This document shows positions 3,703-57,282 of a stretch of 64,000 nt of DNA, one piece after another. Position 1 is the stretch's first letter; each line of letters opens with the position of its first letter. The notes below the pieces were generated by a model. The model saw only the letters and a list, made by a program, of their open reading frames with translations. It made no database searches and was not told where the DNA came from. The translations under genes were made by a program, and so were the position numbers. This stretch comes from an uncultured virus (IMG/VR IMGVR_UViG_3300021963_000096). Its lineage: Duplodnaviria > Heunggongvirae > Uroviricota > Caudoviricetes. The DNA is taken from IMG/VR virus record IMGVR_UViG_3300021963_000096; one strand, 5' to 3'.

Positions 3703-4685
3703 CCTATATTTTAGTCGATACTGCTAACACATTTTTTCGTGCTAGACACGTAATTCGCGGTGATGCTGATATTAAGATCGGCATGGCTTTTCACATCACA
3801 TTAAACTCTATACGCAAGGCTTGGCAAGATTTTAATGGGTCTCATGTCATCTTCTGTTTAGAAGGTCGCTCATGGCGTAAAGACTACTACGAGCCTTACA
3901 AACGCAATCGCAGTGATGCTAGAGCAGCTCTTAATGAAAGAGAACAAGAAGAAGATAAACTGTTCTGGGAAGCATTTGACACATTTAAAGAATTCGTGTC
4001 AGAAAAAACAAACTGTACAGTTTTACATAATCCTCGGCTTGAAGCTGATGATCTTATAGCAGGATGGATACAGAATCATCCCGAATCACAACACGTTATA
4101 ATCTCCACTGACAGCGACTTTGAGCAGTTAATCGCTCCGAATGTAAAACAATACAACGGTGTCAGCGAGATTACCATAACACATGACGGATATTATGATG
4201 CCAAAGGTAACAGAGTCAAGGACAAAAAGACAGGCGAAGAAAAAGCAGCCCCAAATCCAGAATGGCTCTTGTTTGAAAAATGTATGCGTGGTGATACCAG
4301 TGATAATGTCTTCTCAGCGTATCCGGGTGTGCGTACTAAAGGCACAAGCAAAAAGGTGGGTCTTACTGAAGCGTTCGAAGATCGTAAAAGCAAAGGATTT
4401 GCGTGGAACAATCTCATGCTTCAGAGATGGGTTGACCACAATGGACAAGAACACAGAGTCTTAGAAGATTATGAACGCAATCGTCGATTAATCGATCTTA
4501 GCCATCAACCCGACGACATCAAAGAAGTAATCAATGATACTATCAATCAAGCAATCACTTCTAACAAAAATATTAGCCAGGTCGGAATAAGACTAATGAA
4601 GTTCTGTAATCTTTTCGACCTTAAAAAGATTTCCGATCAAGCACAAAGTTATTCGGAGCCATTAAATGCGAGGTATACACAATGA
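3699..4685 (+). CDS. rnh: T4-type RNase H / 5'-3' exonuclease (FEN family)
   Basis: ILVD.AN, SWRKDYY.PYK.NR, LEADDLI, IISTDSDF.QL, GD.SDNV motifs. Confidence 0.9.
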   Translation: MTYILVDTANTFFRARHVIRGDADIKIGMAFHITLNSIRKAWQDFNGSHVIFCLEGRSWRKDYYEPYKRNRSDARAALNEREQEEDKLFWEAFDTFKEFVSEKTNCTVLHNPRLEADDLIAGWIQNHPESQHVIISTDSDFEQLIAPNVKQYNGVSEITITHDGYYDAKGNRVKDKKTGEEKAAPNPEWLLFEKCMRGDTSDNVFSAYPGVRTKGTSKKVGLTEAFEDRKSKGFAWNNLMLQRWVDHNGQEHRVLEDYERNRRLIDLSHQPDDIKEVINDTINQAITSNKNISQVGIRLMKFCNLFDLKKISDQAQSYSEPLNARYTQ

Positions 4686-5158
4686 CAGACATACATGCCA
4701 AACCGATTATCGATAATAAGTTTTGGATCATCGAAGAGAACGGAGAGAAAGTCGCGACCCTTAGAAAGAATGAGGATGAGCGATTTGTTATGAGTAATGA
4801 AAAGGGCGTTAAGATATATGAAACTAAAAAAAGTCTAACTGATCAATTTGGTAAAGATTTTTTTGTAGTTAAGATTCTTAAAGAAGCACGTGATGCTGAC
4901 CCGTTAGAAGTTCACGGATATCCTACTAGTGCCGAACCACACAATGCCATGTACGACATCCAGAAAAAACTTCCACTGTTTACCAAGAGCGGGGATTCAA
5001 AAAGTCTTTACTGTGCCGGTTACTATGTGATTCGATTCGACAAAGGTTGGGTCAAAAGTTTCTGTCCTAAATTGATTACTTTACAACGGTATCAATATGA
5101 AGGCCCATTCAAGACAGAAGTAGAAATGCGTCAGAGGTTATCAAGTGTCTCAAGATAA
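4682..5158 (+). CDS. hypothetical phage protein
   Basis: ATGA-coupled to rnh; no recognised motif. Confidence 0.65.
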   Translation: MTDIHAKPIIDNKFWIIEENGEKVATLRKNEDERFVMSNEKGVKIYETKKSLTDQFGKDFFVVKILKEARDADPLEVHGYPTSAEPHNAMYDIQKKLPLFTKSGDSKSLYCAGYYVIRFDKGWVKSFCPKLITLQRYQYEGPFKTEVEMRQRLSSVSR

Positions 5159-6390: not shown

Positions 6391-6620
6391 TGGCAGAAGA
6401 AGTTAAACAAGAACAACCGCAAGCACAACCGTCAGAAGCTAAGGCACCCGAACTCACTATCAATGATCTCGGAGCTCTACGTACCATTGTCGATGTTGCT
6501 ACACAGCGTGGTGCTTTTAAAGCGGCAGAAATGGAATCAGTCGGAAAAGTCTATAACAGACTAGCATCATTCCTAGAGAGCGTAACACCGAAAGCAGAAG
6601 GACAAAAAGAAAATGGCTAA
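6390..6620 (+). CDS. hypothetical phage protein
   Basis: Strong AGGAG RBS; TAATG coupling to the upstream gene. Confidence 0.7.
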   Translation: MAEEVKQEQPQAQPSEAKAPELTINDLGALRTIVDVATQRGAFKAAEMESVGKVYNRLASFLESVTPKAEGQKENG

Positions 6621-7233
6621 TATTAAACATGTAGGTCGTATGAAGTCTAACAAGGCAAAAATCTTGGTAGTTTTCAAAACGTTACCGAACGACTCAGATC
6701 ACTGTCTTGTTGTCGGTACAGCGAGTTTAGATGATGTGTATCATAACTCCATTATCAACCTTGTCGAAAGTCAACAAGCACAGGACACGTTCGAGTTCGG
6801 TGAAATCCTTTCTATTCGATATTTTCCAGACGGAAAACCGATGTTAGCTGCTTTACATCAAAATCGGAACCTAATCCGTGTTCCTACTAAAGATGTAGAA
6901 ATGACGCCTAGCACAACTACAGTTATTTCTTTAGATGAGCTCAACAATTTAATCGCAGAACAGCGAGGTGTAAAAGTTGAAGATCTAGCTATCACAGCAA
7001 GTTCAAATAAATCTGAAGTAAAAGAAGTTGCTAAAGTTAAAGATCTAATGGAACAGGCTCCGGCTCCCGAAGTTAAGACTGATGGAGTATTGTCTGACAC
7101 TGATTTAGCTAAATCATATCGCAGTCAAGCAGATGCTATGTACAAAGAAGCTGCTAGATTACGTAAACAAGCAGATGAACTAGATCCGCCGAAGAAAAAG
7201 ACGGTAAAGGTATCAGAAGAAGCTAGTGCCTAA
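6613..7233 (+). CDS. hypothetical phage protein
   Basis: 206-aa ORF with a charged C-terminal helix. Confidence 0.7.
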   Translation: MANIKHVGRMKSNKAKILVVFKTLPNDSDHCLVVGTASLDDVYHNSIINLVESQQAQDTFEFGEILSIRYFPDGKPMLAALHQNRNLIRVPTKDVEMTPSTTTVISLDELNNLIAEQRGVKVEDLAITASSNKSEVKEVAKVKDLMEQAPAPEVKTDGVLSDTDLAKSYRSQADAMYKEAARLRKQADELDPPKKKTVKVSEEASA

Positions 7234-7540
7234 AAAATACTTCAAGCCTCCAAAAGATGTTATAAAAGAGTGGCCCGAAGTATTTGAAGAGATATACATG
7301 AGCTCAATGCCCATCAAGTATATCAATGGAGTAGAGCTAACTTTTAATGACGGTAGAGTTTGGGAAATCGATCTTCCGGAACAATTGAATCTCGCCGATG
7401 AAGATGCTATCATTGAAAAACTCTCTGAGGGAATCAGAGATTTTCAAGAAGAAATCATTACCATTAATTTTCAGGTTGATATCGATAGACTCAAACAAGA
7501 TATTATAAACTTAACACAAAATATATTAGGTGACAAATGA
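7226..7540 (+). CDS. hypothetical phage protein (acidic)
   Basis: GTG start overlapping the upstream stop; coupled to thyX. Confidence 0.6.
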   Translation: MPKKYFKPPKDVIKEWPEVFEEIYMSSMPIKYINGVELTFNDGRVWEIDLPEQLNLADEDAIIEKLSEGIRDFQEEIITINFQVDIDRLKQDIINLTQNILGDK

Positions 7541-8220
7541 ATGTTAATCTCGTTTCCTACTCACAGCCCACAGGTAGATTTAAAGATATGGGCATCTCGG
7601 ATGCACAAGAACTTATCGCGTATTGTGCCCGTGTCAGCAATCCCTCCAATCAACTCAACACAGACACCTCCGAAAAACTCATCAGATACTTGGTCAAACA
7701 CAAACACTGGTCACCACTTGAAATGGTCTCAGCCTGCCTCGAAATCACAACTACCCGAGACATCGCAAGACAGATTCTCAGACACAGAAGTTTCTCATTC
7801 CAAGAGTTCAGTCAGCGATATGCTGACCCTACTAAAGATCTCTCGTTCGTATTTAGAGAAGCACGACTACAGGATACCAAGAATCGACAAAATAGTATAG
7901 AATTAGATCTAAGAAATGATGAGCATCGCCAGATAGCCTACCAATGGGAAAATCTACAGCGTGATCTCGTTAATCAGGCCAAGGATGTTTACGAATGGGC
8001 TGTTTCTAAAGGTATAGCTAAAGAGCAGGCTCGTGCTGTGTTACCAGAAGGACTTATTGAAAGTCGTTTATATATGAATGGTACACTGCGAAGCTGGATT
8101 CACTTTATCGAATTGCGTAGTGCTAATGGTACACAGAAAGAACACCAAGAGGTGGCCATAGCCTGTGCTAAAGTGATAGCTGAAATATTTCCGTTAACTG
8201 ACGATTTTATCAGCCAATAA
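7537..8220 (+). CDS. thyX: flavin-dependent thymidylate synthase
   Basis: ThyX motif RHRSFSFQEFSQRY, HWSPLE, AKEQARAVLP, NGTLRSW, TQKEH. Confidence 0.95.
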   Translation: MNVNLVSYSQPTGRFKDMGISDAQELIAYCARVSNPSNQLNTDTSEKLIRYLVKHKHWSPLEMVSACLEITTTRDIARQILRHRSFSFQEFSQRYADPTKDLSFVFREARLQDTKNRQNSIELDLRNDEHRQIAYQWENLQRDLVNQAKDVYEWAVSKGIAKEQARAVLPEGLIESRLYMNGTLRSWIHFIELRSANGTQKEHQEVAIACAKVIAEIFPLTDDFISQ

Positions 8221-52162: not shown

Positions 52163-53937
52163 TCAAAATAAAAAACCTCACTGTAAAGAATTTTATGAGC
52201 GTGGGCAATCAAACCCAGGCTATAGACTTTGACCGAGGACAGCTGACTCTGGTACTCGGTGAAAATCTAGACCTAGGTGGTGATGATAGCGGTGCTAGAA
52301 ACGGCACAGGTAAAACAACCATTATCAACGGTTTAAGTTATGCTATCTATGGGCAGGCCTTGACTAATATCAAGCGGGATAATTTAATTAATAAGATCAA
52401 CAGCAAGGCCATGTTAGTTACTGTAACCTTCGAAAAGGACGGTATAGAATATCATATTGAAAGAGGTCGCAAGCCTAATCTATTGAAATTCGCTATTAAT
52501 GGCCAGGAACAAGAACTAGAGGACTTAGATGAAAGTCAAGGCGACAGTAGAGAAACACAAAAGGCCATCGAAGAAATGTTTGGTATGAGCCACGAGATGT
52601 TCAAGCACCTCGTGGCATTAAACACCTATACAGAACCGTTCCTGGCTATGAAGGCTGCTGATCAAAGATCTATCATCGAACAACTGTTAGGTATTACCTT
52701 GCTCAGTGAAAAAGCGGAAAATCTCAAAGAGCAGACTAAACTTACCAAAGAATCTATAGCCACAGAAAACACACGCATCGAAACTATCAAGATCTCTAAT
52801 GAAAAAATACAACAGAGCATCGAAAGTCTAGAAAGAAAACAAAAATTATGGGAAGATCAAAAAGAGCGAGCATTAGAAGACCTTAGGAAAAGCATTGATG
52901 TGCTTGGCACTATCGACATTGATCAGGAAATTGTTAATCAACGTGCTCTAATCGAATGGAATAAGAACAAGAAAGAACACGATAATCTAACTGCGATGAT
53001 CGCTAAACAGGTTACTACATTAGAAAAAGAACAAAAAAACCTAGAAAAATTAGAAAAAGAATTATTATTGTTGGCAGATCACAAATGCCATAGCTGCGGT
53101 CAGGATCTACACGACGAAAAACATGAATCAATGGTTGCTGTCAAAAGCAAACAAGTAGATGATAGCAGTATAGCTGTCAATGACCATCAGAACGAACTAA
53201 ACACTCTACGTGAAGCACTAGAATTATTAGGTGAGTTGAACGCCTGTCCCAAGGTCACTTATGATAATCTAGAAGAAGCGTTGAATCACAAGAACACATT
53301 GTCTAGTCTAGAAAAAGATATCACGATCAAGGAAGCAGAAACTAATCCCTATGCTGAGCAGATCGAAGAGTTGAAAAACACAGCCGTACAGGAAATTGAC
53401 TGGGATGCTGTTAACGATCTAACTAGACTGAAAGATCATCAGGAATTCTTATACAAACTATTAACTAACAAAGATAGTTTTGTACGCAAACGCATCATCG
53501 ATCAGAATCTAGCATTCTTGAATCAACGGTTGACCTATTATCTCGATAAGATTGGCTTACCGCACATCGTTGAGTTCCAAAACGACCTTAGTGTTATCAT
53601 CACTCAGCTAGGTCAGGATCTAGATTTCGATAATTTAAGCAGAGGTGAACGTAATAGATTGATTCTAAGCCTAAGTTGGGCATTCCGAGATGTATGGGAA
53701 AACTTGTATCAACCTATTAATCTACTGTTTATCGACGAGCTTGTGGATTCGGGCATGGATGCCAGCGGCGTTGAAAGCTCTATCGCTGTGTTGAAAAAGA
53801 TGACCCGAGAACGCAACAAGAACGTATTCCTTATTTCGCATAGAGATGATCTAACTAGCAGGGTAAATCATGTGTTGAAAGTCATTAAAGAAAACGGGTT
53901 TACCAGCTATAGCAACGATGTCGAGATTATAGAATGA
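52159..53937 (+). CDS. recombination ATPase subunit (T4 gp46 / Rad50-SbcC-like)
   Basis: Walker A NGTGKTT, coiled coil with CHSC zinc hook, LSRGE signature, LLFIDE Walker B, ISH. Confidence 0.92.
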   Translation: MIKIKNLTVKNFMSVGNQTQAIDFDRGQLTLVLGENLDLGGDDSGARNGTGKTTIINGLSYAIYGQALTNIKRDNLINKINSKAMLVTVTFEKDGIEYHIERGRKPNLLKFAINGQEQELEDLDESQGDSRETQKAIEEMFGMSHEMFKHLVALNTYTEPFLAMKAADQRSIIEQLLGITLLSEKAENLKEQTKLTKESIATENTRIETIKISNEKIQQSIESLERKQKLWEDQKERALEDLRKSIDVLGTIDIDQEIVNQRALIEWNKNKKEHDNLTAMIAKQVTTLEKEQKNLEKLEKELLLLADHKCHSCGQDLHDEKHESMVAVKSKQVDDSSIAVNDHQNELNTLREALELLGELNACPKVTYDNLEEALNHKNTLSSLEKDITIKEAETNPYAEQIEELKNTAVQEIDWDAVNDLTRLKDHQEFLYKLLTNKDSFVRKRIIDQNLAFLNQRLTYYLDKIGLPHIVEFQNDLSVIITQLGQDLDFDNLSRGERNRLILSLSWAFRDVWENLYQPINLLFIDELVDSGMDASGVESSIAVLKKMTRERNKNVFLISHRDDLTSRVNHVLKVIKENGFTSYSNDVEIIE

Positions 53938-54164
53938 GTACAGATGCCCACGATCGTATGATCCACGCTTTTCAAGAGTATTTTAAATGGCAGGACCGTT
54001 TTGAATACAAAGGATCTGACGAAGCGGGCATCAAAGCCAGATACTGGCTGTCAGAAATACGCAACGAGGCAAGCATTAGGCGAGTAGAAATACAAGACAA
54101 AAGGCACGAACGTAAAAAATCCAGAAAAGGCATGCTAGGTCGTCCACCAAAACTAACTAAGTGA
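53934..54164 (+). CDS. small basic protein, loosely Hc1 (histone H1-like) family
   Basis: F..KG...AG..AR..L.E........R..I pattern with a Lys/Arg-rich tail; family call is tentative. Confidence 0.5.
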   Translation: MSTDAHDRMIHAFQEYFKWQDRFEYKGSDEAGIKARYWLSEIRNEASIRRVEIQDKRHERKKSRKGMLGRPPKLTK

Positions 54165-54599
54165 GTGCTGTGGACATATCAAAATCAACCCGTAGAAGAA
54201 ATACCCGAAGGCTACATAGGCTTTGTTTATCTCATCACCAATCTACAGACCGGACAGAAGTACATAGGCAAAAAACTAGCTCAATTCAAACGTACTAAAC
54301 CACCACTCAAAGGCAAAAAACTTAAAAGAAGATCAACAGTAGAAAGCGATTGGCGCGAATACTGGGGTTCATCTGATAGGTTAAACGCAGACGTCCAAGC
54401 ATTAGGTCCGGAAAACTTCACTAGAGAAATACTTTATCTTTGTAAATCCAAGGCAGAAATGTCATATCTAGAGGCTAGAGAGCAGTTTGAACGCAGGGTT
54501 TTAGAAACAGATGACTATTATAATGGCATTATAAACGTCAGAGTTGGCGGTTCAAACATACTTAGACAGCGTCTAGAAGAACATAAAAAGGCAAAATAA
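54165..54599 (+). CDS. minimal GIY-YIG (Seg-like) endonuclease
   Basis: GFVYLITN...KYIGKK, YWGSS, FTREIL, catalytic-type Glu in YLEAREQ, YYN; GTG start. Confidence 0.8.
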   Translation: MLWTYQNQPVEEIPEGYIGFVYLITNLQTGQKYIGKKLAQFKRTKPPLKGKKLKRRSTVESDWREYWGSSDRLNADVQALGPENFTREILYLCKSKAEMSYLEAREQFERRVLETDDYYNGIINVRVGGSNILRQRLEEHKKAK

Positions 54600-55041
54600 T
54601 CGCCAAAAAAACCCGCACCGGTGACTGTTATGGTGCCCGAAATCCGTGGTGATGTCGCACGGTAAGGACCCTAATTGGCGAAGGGTAAACATAGTACTAT
54701 CCTTAACAGGACGTGGATCGGATATGCCTACAACCGGTTTACTATGTGAAAAACGCATTTTTAAAGGCTAAATGAGGGTTAATAGCCCACGACTATACTG
54801 TACGATAGCAGGTATTTTATAGTCCGCCGTCATAATAAGACTGAGCTCGAGGTACCGGATGACCGCCTCTGTAATGCTCTACTGCTGTGTGACATGTTCG
54901 ACTCGGATAATGTTCATCTTTTAGCCCGCAAGGGCTAAGTGTGACTGAACGATCTGGATAATATTAAAACTGCTTCGCAGTTAAATCTAAAAAAAATGTG
55001 TCTGAGCGTTAGCGAAAGACACGAGTGAGCATCGCTCACTC
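54600..55041 (+). ncRNA. putative large structured non-coding RNA / origin-like element (unassigned family)
   Basis: Only long intergenic gap in the window; about 45% GC by hand count (188/420 over 54601-55020); more than 10 complementary stems and up to three loop-mediated pseudoknots, several with G-U pairs favouring the + strand. Confidence 0.65.
54887..54965 (+). repeat. imperfect direct repeat pair flanking a GCAA-tetraloop hairpin
   Basis: GTGTGACaTGttCGActcGGATAATgTT (54887-54914) versus GTGTGAC-TGaaCGAtctGGATAATaTT (54939-54965). Confidence 0.7.
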
Positions 55042-55049
55042 CTAAATGA

Positions 55050-55056
55050 ATAAATA
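55050..55056 (+). promoter_or_regulatory. T4-like late promoter core
   Basis: ATAAATA upstream of AGGA RBS and ATG 55080. Confidence 0.6.
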
Positions 55057-55079
55057 ATCATTATTAGGAATAGGTCTGT

Positions 55080-56183
55080 ATGAAAATAACTGACGTCATC
55101 ACTGAATCAAAAAAAGTTAATGAAGCACCTGTAGGTATGTTAAAAAGGGCTGGTCTAGGTATTGCTTCTAAATTAGGCAGTACTCGAGCTGCTGGAGCAC
55201 TAGATACTGCGGAAGTGGCTAACAATCTAAAAAAAGCCTTTAGTAGATTCCTAGGTCAAACAGGACAAAAACCTAATTCTGATAGCATTATCGCTTTCTT
55301 GCAGAGAAATAGCTTGCCTACTGACGGTGCTGAGAAAGCTATCCAACAGGCTGCTGCTGGTGCCGGTATACAAGTAGGACCTGCTAAAGATATGGCCGCA
55401 ACATTAGGCATTGGAAAAAATGCTGGCGGTCCTATGGCGACACCTAACCCAAAACCATCCGCAGGTACTAGCAGTGCAGAAGCTCCTCCCGAAGCTGGAG
55501 GCAGACCTGCTGCCGCGGAGCCTGCTGCCGCAGGCGGAACATCCGATGTAGATTATGACATTCCGGCATATAAGAGAAAAGGTATGCCTGAACCTACAAC
55601 TACACCAACTACACCAACTAACCCACAAGCTGATCTCAAAGCTAGACTTAAAGCTAAAAAAGGTGCTGGTAAAGTTAAAACTAATTTTAAAGCATATCAG
55701 AATGCTGCCAAAGCAAAAGGTCTAAACGCTGGTTTAGATTTATTTGGTAATCCTATCATGGAAGTTGATCTCAAAGGTTCAACTGTTGATAAAATTATTC
55801 TAGCCGCTGTACAAGATGCTATTAAGAATGGTATGGGACAGCAACTGTCCGCTGTGAGCTCTGGTAGCGGAGCAGGAGCTGCTGATGGTGGTGAAGAAGG
55901 TGATCAAGAACAGGGATTCATGGCTGGCATAAAGCGTGGAATTAAAGGTGGTGATCAACCAACACAAGCTAGAGGCAATGTTAATTACGGAAAATTAGGA
56001 GAGCTGCTGCCTGGTGTTGATCCTGCTCAACTAAGAAAAGCTGTCACTAACTCTCTAGCTGGCAGACCGTTGTCAAGAGAACAAATGGGTGTCATGGCAA
56101 CTGCGTTTGGTGAGGTTATTAAATTAGATCCTGCGGCAAAAACTCAGGTATTTCAATTACTCAAAGCAGTAAGAGCCGCTTAA
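55080..56183 (+). CDS. Ala/Gly/Pro-rich protein, possible head internal protein
   Basis: N-terminus MKITDVITE...VNEA resembles T4 capsid-targeting/prohead-protease (I/L/V-x-E) leaders; preceded by a late promoter. Confidence 0.55.
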   Translation: MKITDVITESKKVNEAPVGMLKRAGLGIASKLGSTRAAGALDTAEVANNLKKAFSRFLGQTGQKPNSDSIIAFLQRNSLPTDGAEKAIQQAAAGAGIQVGPAKDMAATLGIGKNAGGPMATPNPKPSAGTSSAEAPPEAGGRPAAAEPAAAGGTSDVDYDIPAYKRKGMPEPTTTPTTPTNPQADLKARLKAKKGAGKVKTNFKAYQNAAKAKGLNAGLDLFGNPIMEVDLKGSTVDKIILAAVQDAIKNGMGQQLSAVSSGSGAGAADGGEEGDQEQGFMAGIKRGIKGGDQPTQARGNVNYGKLGELLPGVDPAQLRKAVTNSLAGRPLSREQMGVMATAFGEVIKLDPAAKTQVFQLLKAVRAA

Positions 56184-56449
56184 AAAAACGGCAACCCAGA
56201 AGTTTTAGTTATGTCCATATTATCCTTGACTATTTCAAGGACAAGTTCTCTTTCGTCGTGGCTTAGATTCATCGCTTCAGCAAACGACAAACCACCACGC
56301 ATATACCAAACTGATCGCATAGCTTCTAACTTGATCTGTTTTGCCTGATCATCTAAGGCCTTCGACTCGGCTAATACTTCAGGAATACTTAACGTCGAAA
56401 GCCTTTGCCGAAAAAATCCGACTGATCCATAGTAAGTTCTACTTCCCAT
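56180..56449 (-). CDS. gp51-like baseplate/tail assembly factor, probably made as a -1 frameshift extension of the upstream ORF
   Basis: WYMRGGLSF.EA.NLS..ER pattern; no RBS before ATG 56449; overlaps the upstream ORF end at T-TTT-TTC. Confidence 0.6.
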   Translation of the reverse strand: MGSRTYYGSVGFFRQRLSTLSIPEVLAESKALDDQAKQIKLEAMRSVWYMRGGLSFAEAMNLSHDERELVLEIVKDNMDITKTSGLPFF

Positions 56450-57282
56450 TCATTGGCACAGTTTTGACATTTGCTGTGAAAGGTGCTAAGATTACCTGTT
56501 TCTCTGGTCTTGCTGACAGCATTATTAATCTGTTCAAAGATATTCTTATCAGTTTTTTGTAAAAATTCTTTTATGAACTCTGGATTGTCAGTCATGCCTG
56601 CTGAACTTTCAATACGAGTGATACATCTAACTGCGGTGTCGATGGTTAAATCGGTAAGTTTAATAAAACTTTCTTGAAACATCTTAAGTTTTTCTTGCTC
56701 GCTGATAGACTCATCGTTGATAATAGTGAATATCCTCTGATGCTCAAAAGCCTTTAATGCTGCTTTGGTAATTTCTTCATAGGTCATAGGTCTTAGATGA
56801 ACGACCATTTGATCTCCAATCTCAACTTTGGTATCAAATGTAATACTGTTTAATTTGTCTAAGACTGTGCGTAGATCAACGACAGCATCATTAGCATGAC
56901 TGCACTTAGGGCATCTAGCCACAACTTCCATATCTTCCCCGTAGGTTGCGATACGAATAGCAGATAAAATAGCATCAACATCTAGGCTAGGTACTTGCCA
57001 AGGATCGACGATATTAGGAATGCAGCTTGAGATTACTTCTTTCGTAGCTACTCCGTTCATCAAAGCATCGGGAGTCTTAAACAGTAGCTCGTCTCTAGCC
57101 GTCATAGCATAAACAGGATATTCATTGTTAGGAGTTCTTTTTAAGGCTCCTTCTGGATAAAAATTACCTTTTGACGGTAGAGACACATAGATTTTTGGCT
57201 GTCTAAAAAAACTAGACAACGGGTTTAAGTTTTGTTGAGGAGCAGACTGTGCTGCGACCTTACTTGGATCAAAATCTGACAT
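56389..57282 (-). CDS. baseplate hub assembly protein (T4 gp26-like)
   Basis: LPSKG.FY, MTARDE, D.DAIL.AIR.ATYG, CPKC and CQNC Zn pairs, terminal DFF. Confidence 0.8.
   Translation of the reverse strand: MSDFDPSKVAAQSAPQQNLNPLSSFFRQPKIYVSLPSKGNFYPEGALKRTPNNEYPVYAMTARDELLFKTPDALMNGVATKEVISSCIPNIVDPWQVPSLDVDAILSAIRIATYGEDMEVVARCPKCSHANDAVVDLRTVLDKLNSITFDTKVEIGDQMVVHLRPMTYEEITKAALKAFEHQRIFTIINDESISEQEKLKMFQESFIKLTDLTIDTAVRCITRIESSAGMTDNPEFIKEFLQKTDKNIFEQINNAVSKTRETGNLSTFHSKCQNCANEWEVELTMDQSDFFGKGFRR

Follow-up and report, generated by a model that had tools for sequence, protein, structure and literature searches.

An extended Polynucleobacter-1 RNA beside a minimal GIY-YIG nuclease gene in uncultured giant phages, probably a self-standing RNA gene of mobile elements

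An uncultured virus of the Caudoviricetes (IMG/VR record IMGVR_UViG_3300021963_000096), analysed here as a stretch of 64,000 nucleotides (nt) that we call the window, carries a gene for a small GIY-YIG nuclease followed at once by a structured gap of some 440 nt. A sequence-only reading of this DNA, made without database searches, had recognised no named family in the gap and had proposed that nuclease and RNA may form a system in which the RNA binds or guides the enzyme. We report that the gap is, by sequence and covariance-model similarity, the extended, full-length form of a named family, the Polynucleobacter-1 RNA, of which the published family is the 5' part. We think it fairly probable that mobile elements carry this RNA as a gene in its own right and that the nuclease gene, of homing type, has lodged at its 5' edge; the RNA is probably not the guide of that nuclease.

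Results

Identity and extent of the RNA

The region 54600-55079 is the only internal stretch of at least 200 nt in the window without an open reading frame (ORF) of at least 75 amino acids (aa). A scan of the whole window against Rfam returned one match above threshold, to RF01718 (Polynucleobacter-1) at 54610-54749 on the + strand, scoring 63.5 bits against a cut-off of 37, covering model positions 1-141 of 141 and reaching an E-value of 3.8e-11 for the whole window (cmscan). For the rest of the gap, Rfam at E-values up to 1 added only a chance-level match to CRISPR-DR57 (18 bits against a cut-off of 39), and the scan gave no group I intron, riboswitch or other named family there. No match to the gap was found by distant-mode blastn among 50,697 phage records. 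The features of the RNA and of the adjoining nuclease gene are as follows:

54165-54599, + strand: SegE-type GIY-YIG nuclease, 144 aa, catalytic domain only (Pfam PF19835)
54600-55042, + strand: whole structured RNA, extended Polynucleobacter-1 (conservation, profile hidden Markov model (HMM), minimum free energy (MFE), covariation)
54600-54606, + strand: leader strand TCGCCAA of pseudoknot PK1, pairing with TTGGCGA at 54675-54681 in the P3 loop (permutation test)
54610-54749, + strand: 5' domain, equal to the RF01718 model, with P1, P2, P3 and the three-way junction P4/P4a/P4b (cmscan)
54611-54622, + strand: mini pseudoknot PK0, ACC 54611-54613 with GGT 54620-54622, bracketing the 5' strand of P1 (pairing counts)
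54750-54890, + strand: middle domain, with conserved AAAGGCTAAA, hairpin P5, long hairpin P6, P7/P7a and the invariant GGTACCGG..ACCGCC (long form of the Weinberg 2010 alignment)
54806-54811, + strand: pseudoknot PK2, P6 loop TAGCAG with CTGCTG at 54882-54887 (covariation, Weinberg 2010 alignment)
54829-54833, + strand: pseudoknot PK3, GTCAT with ATGAC at 54859-54863 (pairing counts)
54886-55044, + strand: 3' module of five hairpins, outside Rfam (own covariance model)
54891-54914, + strand: 3' module hairpin H8
54921-54938, + strand: 3' module hairpin H9, with a GNRA loop
54968-54982, + strand: 3' module hairpin H10
54998-55022, + strand: 3' module hairpin H11, inner GC-GNNA-GC
55023-55041, + strand: 3' module hairpin H12
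54901-54912, + strand: twin loop 1, ACTC-GGAT-AATG (tetramer agreement, mutual information)
54952-54963, + strand: twin loop 2, ATCT-GGAT-AATA (tetramer agreement, mutual information)

Judged by the supplementary Stockholm alignment of the original description (Weinberg 2010, PMC2864571, supplementary file 5), 54610 to about 54890 is the published Polynucleobacter-1 motif in its long form. That alignment comprises short rows of ~135 nt and long rows of 280-300 nt. In the long rows the elements succeed one another as they do in the window: AAAGGCUAA, a hairpin, a long hairpin whose loop reads UAGCNU, CGAGGUACCGGnnnACCGCCUCUGUAAUG and a 3' ACGCUG that pairs with the hairpin loop. One occurrence reported there lies in the Polynucleobacter genome NC_009379.1, at 2130772-2130906. 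The supplementary table counts 16 sequences, and the table row for the motif reads 'y' for RNA, 'y' for cis-regulatory and '?' for switch, with Burkholderiales and fresh water/estuary as its sources (Weinberg 2010, PMC2864571). A full-text literature search, which used no other terms for a published function, found the name 'Polynucleobacter-1' in Weinberg 2010 only and 'DUF6641', the family of a gene flanking the RNA in bacteria (see below), nowhere.

Homologues were collected with a pattern built on the invariant middle of the RNA, which occurs at no fewer than 120 IMG/VR loci; 62 of those listed carry an RNA homologue (nhmmer E < 1e-3). A plain MAFFT alignment of 56 distinct full-length homologues is the basis of the pairing counts given below for the 5' and middle domains. 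Conservation across these sequences spans ~54590 to ~55042, that is, the entire gap, and a profile HMM of the RNA has a single match in the window, at 54601-55042. GC content over 54600-55041 is 45.2%, compared with 37.1% for the whole window. In the assembled structure 70.3% of cells are paired, against 60.2% in shuffled alignments, and its covariation score of 0.306 exceeds both the 0.141 of shuffles (0/500 reach the observed value) and the scores obtained with partners slid (at most 0.121), so that compensatory changes, proposed as a check when the structure was first drawn, are present among homologues. We place the RNA on the + strand because core helices hold 171 G-U against 12 A-C cells, because the MFE z-score is -4.96 on the + strand (0/100 shuffles as good) and only -1.64 on the - strand, and because of the covariation itself. 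The claim of a large pseudoknotted RNA on the strand of the nuclease gene, beginning at the base after its stop codon, is upheld by these measures.

Near-identical DNA is present in aquatic metagenome runs of many studies, and parts of it occur in six RNA libraries. Among the RNA libraries of four studies that were examined, one contains a 243-nt contig identical to 54604-54846, one a 262-nt contig over 54719-54980, and two contain contigs, belonging to relatives, that begin within the nuclease ORF and extend into the RNA; depth in these libraries cannot rank the RNA against the gene, and uncovered parts carry no meaning. The bridging contigs are compatible with co-transcription of nuclease ORF and RNA but do not demonstrate it.

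Helices and pseudoknots of the 5' and middle domains

Five of the stems drawn from the sequence alone are borne out by pairing among the homologues: P1 (GCACC/GGTGC; 99.3% paired, 5/5 pairs changed on both sides), P6 (GACTATA/TATAGTC; 86.5%, 7/7), P7 (GAGC/GCTC; 90.6%, 4/4), P7a (GAGG/CCTC; 96.4%, two of four pairs changed on both sides and the other two invariant) and P4a (TCCT/AGGA; 83.6% in the MAFFT alignment). The inner part of P6 (P6i) is paired in 92.4% of cells, with all four pairs changed on both sides. The remaining stems of the 5' domain, CCGTG/CACGG (P2), ACCCT/AGGGT (P3), ACATAGTA/TACTATGT (P4) and GATCGG/CCGGTT (P4b), pair in the window and correspond to helices of the Rfam model, but they reach no more than 25-55% in the alignment, where visible register shifts suggest misalignment as the source of the low scores.

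The pairing of the leader with the P3 loop (PK1), which lies outside both the Rfam model and the Weinberg 2010 alignment, had been proposed from the sequence and is backed by a permutation test. Duplexes between each homologue's own leader and own loop come to -7.6 kcal/mol against -4.3 kcal/mol for mismatched ones, and 0/10000 permutations reach the own value, in a test that sequence relatedness inflates; register shifts between clades give PK1 poor column counts. PK2, likewise proposed from the sequence, is paired in 99.4% of cells with 6/6 pairs compensatory, and was already drawn in 2010 as the SS_cons_1 line of the published alignment (Weinberg 2010, PMC2864571). Two further pairings are absent from the 2010 model as drawn in that alignment. 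PK0 is 91.7% paired, with one of three pairs changed on both sides and two varying on one side. PK3 is paired in all 56 sequences (100%), with three of five pairs compensatory and two invariant, and takes the place of the model's three-pair CGG/CCG hairpin; the CGG-ATGA-CCG hairpin of the sequence-only reading falls with it, as its loop letters covary with GTCAT at 54829-54833 instead. The third pseudoknot of that reading, GCCT/AGGC, fails the permutation test (own -5.29 against cross -5.31 kcal/mol; 5500/10000 permutations), although a few compensatory cases are visible.

The 3' module and its twin loops

No Rfam family covers 54886-55044 at E-values up to 1. We built a covariance model of this 3' module (R2) from 26 sequences, with five hairpins, and searched it in 99 sources, where it gave 81 full-length matches. 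These comprise the window itself (1/1), 12/13 other loci of its clade (the one miss, L025, ends just after the 5' domain), 53/56 loci collected through the nuclease and 15/15 bacterial loci. None of 14 control loci matched (0/14), drawn from the whole genome of phage Melnitz (8 stretches), PA5oct, Atu_ph07, ACP17, V45v66, S-SRM01 and RHph_I1_18. In an alignment of 77 distinct rows, which was fitted to the structure and hence leans towards it, 90.8% of cells are paired against 63.0% in shuffles, 32/33 pairs are changed on both sides, and the covariation score is 0.598 against 0.175 in shuffles (0/500) and at most 0.114 with partners slid. Hairpin H12 alone shows no + strand bias (26 G-U against 41 A-C) and is terminator-like on the - strand.

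Two loops of the module follow the patterns A[C/T]TC-NNNN-NNNN and ATCT-NNNN-NNNN, and they vary in concert. Both are readable in 97/102 distinct modules, and the variable tetramer is identical between the two loops in 94/97: AGAT in 32, ACAT in 28, GGAT in 27, GCAT in 3, GAAT in 2, and AGTT and GGAG in one each. We read the three mismatches as mis-registered matches of the regular expression. For each of the variable positions, the best mutual-information partner is the equivalent position in the other loop (0.89, 0.85, 0.52, 0.40). The 12 Polynucleobacter islands described below bear other tetramers (AGCG, AGAG, AACA, ATCA, AGCA), which are identical within the RNA in 9/12.

A variable, unstructured segment that could serve as a guide had been suggested as something to look for; what the alignment offers is these two variable loops of 4-8 nt, and no complementary target was found for them. 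Inside the RNA, mutual information identifies no complementary column; within 5 kilobases (kb) in 27 phage loci only scattered matches occur; and in 20-kb stretches around the 12 islands, the complements that fall beyond the integrase gene have no context in common. Pairing of the twin loops with each other, as the MFE fold draws it, was rejected by hand, since the ACAT variant (28/97 modules) would break it. Readings of the loops as transfer RNA (tRNA) anticodon loops, Shine-Dalgarno sequences or CsrA sites were judged by eye and are at odds with the variants.

A second clade of phages (L134-L200) carries a non-coding stretch of ~500 nt after the nuclease gene (L166, 3432-3836; L172, 3450-3915). 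It has a different conserved 5' part, which begins TAAGGTTGGCGGGCCAG at the stop codon and is followed by the shared 3' module; Rfam does not recognise this 5' part in 20/20 loci. The stretch is probably a diverged form of the same RNA.

The GIY-YIG nuclease

The nuclease ORF matches SegE_GIY-YIG (PF19835) over residues 3-123 (E 7.5e-37) and phrog_447 over its full length. Across 19 relatives, residues G19, V21, Y22, Y33, G35, R87, E103 and N120 never change, while F20 is retained by 90% or more; R87, E103 and N120 we take to be the catalytic Arg, Glu and Asn. No Pfam family other than PF19835 appears, either as a C-terminal DNA-binding domain or elsewhere beyond residues 3-123; the tail varies in length among relatives, and a basic insert is kept in all 19. 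The description of the protein as a minimal 144-aa GIY-YIG enzyme with a basic insert and no C-terminal DNA-recognition domain thus holds. Its AlphaFold2 model has a mean predicted local distance difference test score of 83, and the best fold in the PDB is the I-TevI catalytic domain, a weak match (probability 0.72); Foldseek gave no match at E of 0.001 or below, and a profile search of solved structures gave a weak GIY-YIG match (E 0.24).

Linkage of nuclease and RNA in phages

The linkage was assessed from both sides, in samples of 38, 61 and 56 phage loci that share contigs. Enough upstream DNA was available for 38 of the 62 loci of the first RNA-anchored sample, and a GIY-YIG gene lies upstream of the RNA in 36 of them, directly in 34 and with one unrelated ORF between in 2 (L041, L058). 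In the other two the slot is taken by a 173-aa nuclease of the PDDEXK_15 family (PF24608, E 2.5e-29). This gene stands directly before the RNA in L046 (~4221-4742, + strand), and in L025 an RNase HI-like ORF comes after it, and then a gap of 394 nt. A second sample, anchored on the 3' module pattern, yielded 106 real loci among 119 new ones, 45 of them with too little upstream DNA; a GIY-YIG gene is found in 61/61 of the rest, adjacent in 56 and further off, with unrelated ORFs between, in 5. Starting from the nuclease, relatives are encoded in 593 of 600 candidate stretches, of which the 80 best, with 67-96% identity, were taken further; 56 of these have at least 560 nt downstream, and 53/56 carry the 3' module. 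Across this phage lineage, as in the window, RNA and nuclease gene are almost always neighbours. Relative to the equivalent of 54610, where the Rfam match begins, the position of the nuclease stop codon varies between 50 nt upstream and 7 nt downstream.

Each partner without the other

Of 120 loci from a genome scan with the 5'-domain pattern, three are real: two belong to Polynucleobacter and the third to a metagenome-assembled genome (MAG) labelled Nitrospira lenta. RF01718 scores above its cut-off in 17/151 Polynucleobacter genomes, four of which hold two copies, and all 15 bacterial loci tested carry the 3' module. In the three RNA-bearing genomes tested, a GIY-YIG profile has no match (3/3).

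The chromosomal islands that hold the RNA share one layout in 12/12 cases: a divergent DUF6641 gene, the RNA (~480 nt), often a variable ORF, a 188-aa protein of the Phage_integrase family and genes of two unnamed families, followed further on by an AAA ATPase (11/12) and a 424-aa integrase-like gene (9/12). The 188-aa tyrosine recombinase consists of a catalytic domain only. From the RNA to its gene there are 280-1250 nt, often with another ORF between, and upstream the RNA follows the divergent gene, with no ORF on its own strand. A recognised nuclease beside the RNA is found in none of the 12 islands. The element thus occurs independently of the GIY-YIG nuclease.

Several observations concern the islands themselves. 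The three-gene block (the two unnamed families and the AAA ATPase) beside the FimB-sized 188-aa recombinase is inverted in 2/12 islands (L475, L478) relative to the others (L476, L477, L479-L486), which suggests an invertible segment. Like cargo regions, the left arms vary from one island to the next; that of L480 includes a patatin-like phospholipase gene (6456-7562, - strand). In the MAG labelled Nitrospira lenta (L238), a Polynucleobacter-type island (DUF6641, RNA, small integrase) stands by a large gene unrelated to it; either mis-binning of the contig or transfer of the island may account for this.

Isolated phages present the converse. The closest nuclease from an isolate, with 65% identity, lies beside nrdB in Methylophilales phage Melnitz, whose gp46 is merely 24% identical to that of the window and whose whole genome has no RNA match. 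In ACP17, S-SRM01 and RHph_I1_18 the nuclease homologue stands alone (on the opposite strand in ACP17 and S-SRM01), with 0-90 nt between it and the start of the neighbouring gene, and no RNA was found at the nuclease loci of these three phages or of V45v66. Judged by gp46 (46-48% identity), the isolates closest to the window are PA5oct and Atu_ph07; they share its gene order of late-sigma, gp47, gp46 ... baseplate hub, and have neither nuclease nor RNA at the syntenic locus. The proposed nuclease-RNA system loses support from the RNA without the nuclease in bacteria, from nucleases without the RNA in isolated phages, and from an RNA in which no long guide and for which no target was found. Two outcomes named beforehand as speaking against it, a strong Rfam match and an element that occurs independently of the nuclease, are both observed, although the nuclease may still bind the RNA.

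Gene neighbourhood in the window

The genes before the gap encode a gp47-like phosphoesterase and a gp46-like SMC-type protein, and the 76-aa ORF and the nuclease ORF come after them. The genes that flank the nuclease-RNA pair on either side are:

53934-54164, + strand: 76-aa ORF between the gp46-like gene and the nuclease gene, with tblastn matches in part of the related loci
55080-56183, + strand: 367-aa gene downstream of the RNA, outside the element, no family matched

The 76-aa ORF matched no Pfam or PHROG family. Past the 367-aa ORF the coding strand changes, with an 89-aa ORF and then a gene for a T4 baseplate hub. The gene 3' of the RNA varies among phage loci, and in many of them the convergent genes for the 89-aa protein and the baseplate hub terminate immediately after the RNA. 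In the window, the gp26-like baseplate-hub ORF (297 aa, 56389-57282, - strand) ends just past a TTTTTTC run (~56410-56416) and overlaps the 89-aa ORF (56180-56449, - strand) in another frame.

The variable genes that follow the RNA in the window and in L046, L134, L138, L162 and L166 tend to resemble one another at the N-terminus (MKI/MKL/MRV x D/E V/I/L T), and they have a high content of Ala, Gly and Pro. T4 internal proteins carry capsid-targeting leaders, which these N-termini recall.

The heptamer AGGCAAA just 5' of the RNA is not enriched in the window as a junction or promoter box (15 matches against 9.5 expected), and a sigma-70 scan showed no + strand promoter near the RNA start.

Discussion

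A probable self-standing RNA gene with a lodged nuclease gene

The reading we favour is that of a single + strand gene for a non-coding RNA of ~440 nt with several pseudoknots, built in three parts: the leader pseudoknot locks the 5' domain, the middle domain holds two pseudoknots, and five hairpins make up the 3' module, with its two loops that vary in concert. The RNA would be a self-standing module of mobile elements; it occurs in a lineage of uncultured giant phages from aquatic habitats, to which PA5oct and Atu_ph07 are related, and in integrase-bearing Polynucleobacter islands. In the phages it closes a row of gp47, gp46, in some cases the 76-aa ORF, and the nuclease gene, presumably one transcription unit, and is probably made either at the 3' end of this transcript or from a start close by on the upstream side. 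The GIY-YIG gene would be a free-standing, homing-type gene settled at the 5' edge of the RNA; T4 segB, for its part, sits among tRNA genes. We read the nuclease in this way because its slot is exchangeable, because the gene moves between distant phages and because the RNA lives without it in bacteria; its distribution puts it at different sites in Melnitz, ACP17, S-SRM01 and RHph_I1_18, yet near-fixed at one site in the lineage of the window. From this distribution the nuclease would not be RNA-guided. The RNA itself would most probably act in trans as a compact fold whose two identical loops hold a partner, such as a dimeric protein or a repeated nucleic-acid site.

Several points weigh against this reading. 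Adjacency to the nuclease gene is near-fixed in phages (36/38, 61/61 and 53/56), the pair is kept where upstream genes differ (for example next to a hemC-like or HAD-like gene), and no empty site, an RNA without an upstream nuclease gene, was found in the phage loci examined, an absence not usual in a selfish homing gene. Three small DNA enzymes in turn adjoin the RNA, GIY-YIG, PDDEXK and a 188-aa tyrosine recombinase, a succession that could equally mean functional coupling, and the twin loops look like specificity elements. The assembled contigs from RNA libraries show neither transcript ends nor level and may derive from carried-over DNA, and the trans-acting role with its partner is pure inference.

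Alternative explanations

These points bear most directly on a functional nuclease-RNA system, in which the RNA would bind the GIY-YIG (or PDDEXK) enzyme and scaffold, regulate or aim it, with another small DNA enzyme in its place in the islands. Such a system, which we regard as unlikely, would explain the same-strand adjacency and its persistence where flanks change, the presence of two unrelated nuclease families in the same slot, a nuclease that has a basic insert in all 19 aligned relatives and lacks a DNA-binding domain, the RNA-library contigs that bridge both partners, and twin loops that vary in concert as specificity elements might. It is at odds with the RNA's occurrence without a GIY-YIG gene in 3/3 tested Polynucleobacter genomes and without a recognised adjoining nuclease in 12/12 islands, with the nuclease's occurrence without the RNA in Melnitz, ACP17, S-SRM01 and RHph_I1_18, with a variable loop part of only 4-8 nt for which no complement was found within 5 kb (phages) or 10 kb (islands), and with the unfixed position of the stop codon relative to the RNA. 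Were the near-fixed pairing with small nuclease genes functional, it would represent a new type of RNA-protein DNA-targeting system.

Alternatively, the fold could be the cis-acting 3' end of an operon, protecting, terminating or processing the gp47-gp46-nuclease messenger without a role of its own. The RNA always stands at the 3' end of a + strand gene row, often facing a convergent gene, and the terminator-like character of H12 on the - strand, with its lack of + strand bias, would suit such an end. However, 440 nt with four pseudoknots and invariant junction letters far exceed what end protection needs, the same RNA is kept behind unrelated upstream ORFs, and in the islands it follows a divergent gene and not an ORF on its own strand, so that we give this explanation little weight, less than the preceding one.

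A possible coupling of the RNA to three enzymes in turn can also be taken further, to a portable recognition module for domain-minimal DNA enzymes, with the 144-aa GIY-YIG or 173-aa PDDEXK nuclease upstream in phages and the 188-aa recombinase downstream in islands, the twin loops supplying nucleic-acid specificity. If true, this would amount to DNA cutting or recombination assisted by RNA in a way not seen before, and we hold it to be improbable, somewhat more so than an operon end.

Slightly less probable again is a cis-regulatory, riboswitch-like leader of the downstream gene, which is what the 'y' under cis-regulatory in the published table row would imply (Weinberg 2010, PMC2864571) and which finds some support in the 188-aa recombinase gene on the same strand downstream of the RNA in 12/12 islands. 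We do not take the RNA for a leader because the phage downstream gene is unconserved and often, in many loci, convergent; in the islands, moreover, the 280-1250 nt and frequent ORF between RNA and recombinase gene speak against it, and we consider it a poor candidate, ranking behind the recognition module. Least probable by our estimate, and very doubtful, is a DNA-level element (replication origin, packaging or recombination site) whose pairings are DNA palindromes or protein sites: the stretch is common to two kinds of mobile element, the two direct repeats of the 3' module resemble protein sites and RNase HI stands beside the RNA in one locus, but the 171 G-U against 12 A-C strand bias, the MFE z-scores (-4.96 on + against -1.64 on -) and the covariation of long-range pseudoknots all point to RNA.

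Comparison with known systems

With the published Polynucleobacter-1 RNA, the 5' 140 nt agree end-to-end with the model, and the next 140 nt match the long rows of the published alignment, including the pseudoknot; the habitat labels (fresh water, estuary, Burkholderiales) are concordant. The published model stops at ~141 nt (Rfam) or ~300 nt (the alignment of the paper), compared with ~440 nt here. Relative to Rfam and that alignment, the leader pseudoknot, PK0, PK3 and the 160-nt 3' module with its twin loops are new. The table row of the paper makes the RNA probably cis-regulatory, whereas here it is a phage and island RNA untied to a downstream gene (Weinberg 2010, PMC2864571). A motif held in Rfam since 2010 as 141 nt and guessed to be cis-regulatory thereby becomes about three times larger, acquires at least four long-range pairings, and is placed in giant aquatic phages and bacterial integrative islands.

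The T4 seg genes are free-standing GIY-YIG homing endonuclease genes, with segB in a tRNA cluster. The arrangement in the window resembles them in that a small GIY-YIG gene lies beside a conserved stable-RNA gene in a T4-type phage, and in that the nuclease family appears at other sites in distant phages (by nrdB in Melnitz, alone in ACP17 and S-SRM01). It differs in that the nuclease of the window has no C-terminal DNA-binding domain and is near-fixed in its lineage rather than patchy; its homing and cleavage activities are putative.

HEARO/IscB-omegaRNA and TnpB-omegaRNA are RNA-guided nucleases of IS200/IS605 elements. Like the present pair, they combine a large structured RNA with a small nuclease gene that a mobile element carries next to it in the same orientation. 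Here, by contrast, the enzyme has a GIY-YIG fold in place of RuvC/HNH, the RNA lacks a 12-20-nt guide at its end, and RNA and nuclease each occur alone, with no obligate co-occurrence. The islands, in turn, recall the IS110 bridge RNA, a structured RNA by a recombinase gene with two internal loops holding short variable segments; the island enzyme, however, is a Phage_integrase tyrosine recombinase and not the IS110 DEDD/serine enzyme, the two loops are identical and not different, and a search of the 12 islands gave no matching sequence at their ends or close to them.

ROOL and GOLLD are large phage-linked RNAs whose function is unknown. The RNA of the window has no sequence or model similarity to them, Rfam giving only RF01718 above its cut-off here, but like them it is hundreds of nt long, has many pseudoknots and is carried by phages and other mobile DNA. 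The extended Polynucleobacter-1 RNA would thus join, alongside ROOL and GOLLD, the few large and ornate RNAs of mobile elements that have no known function.

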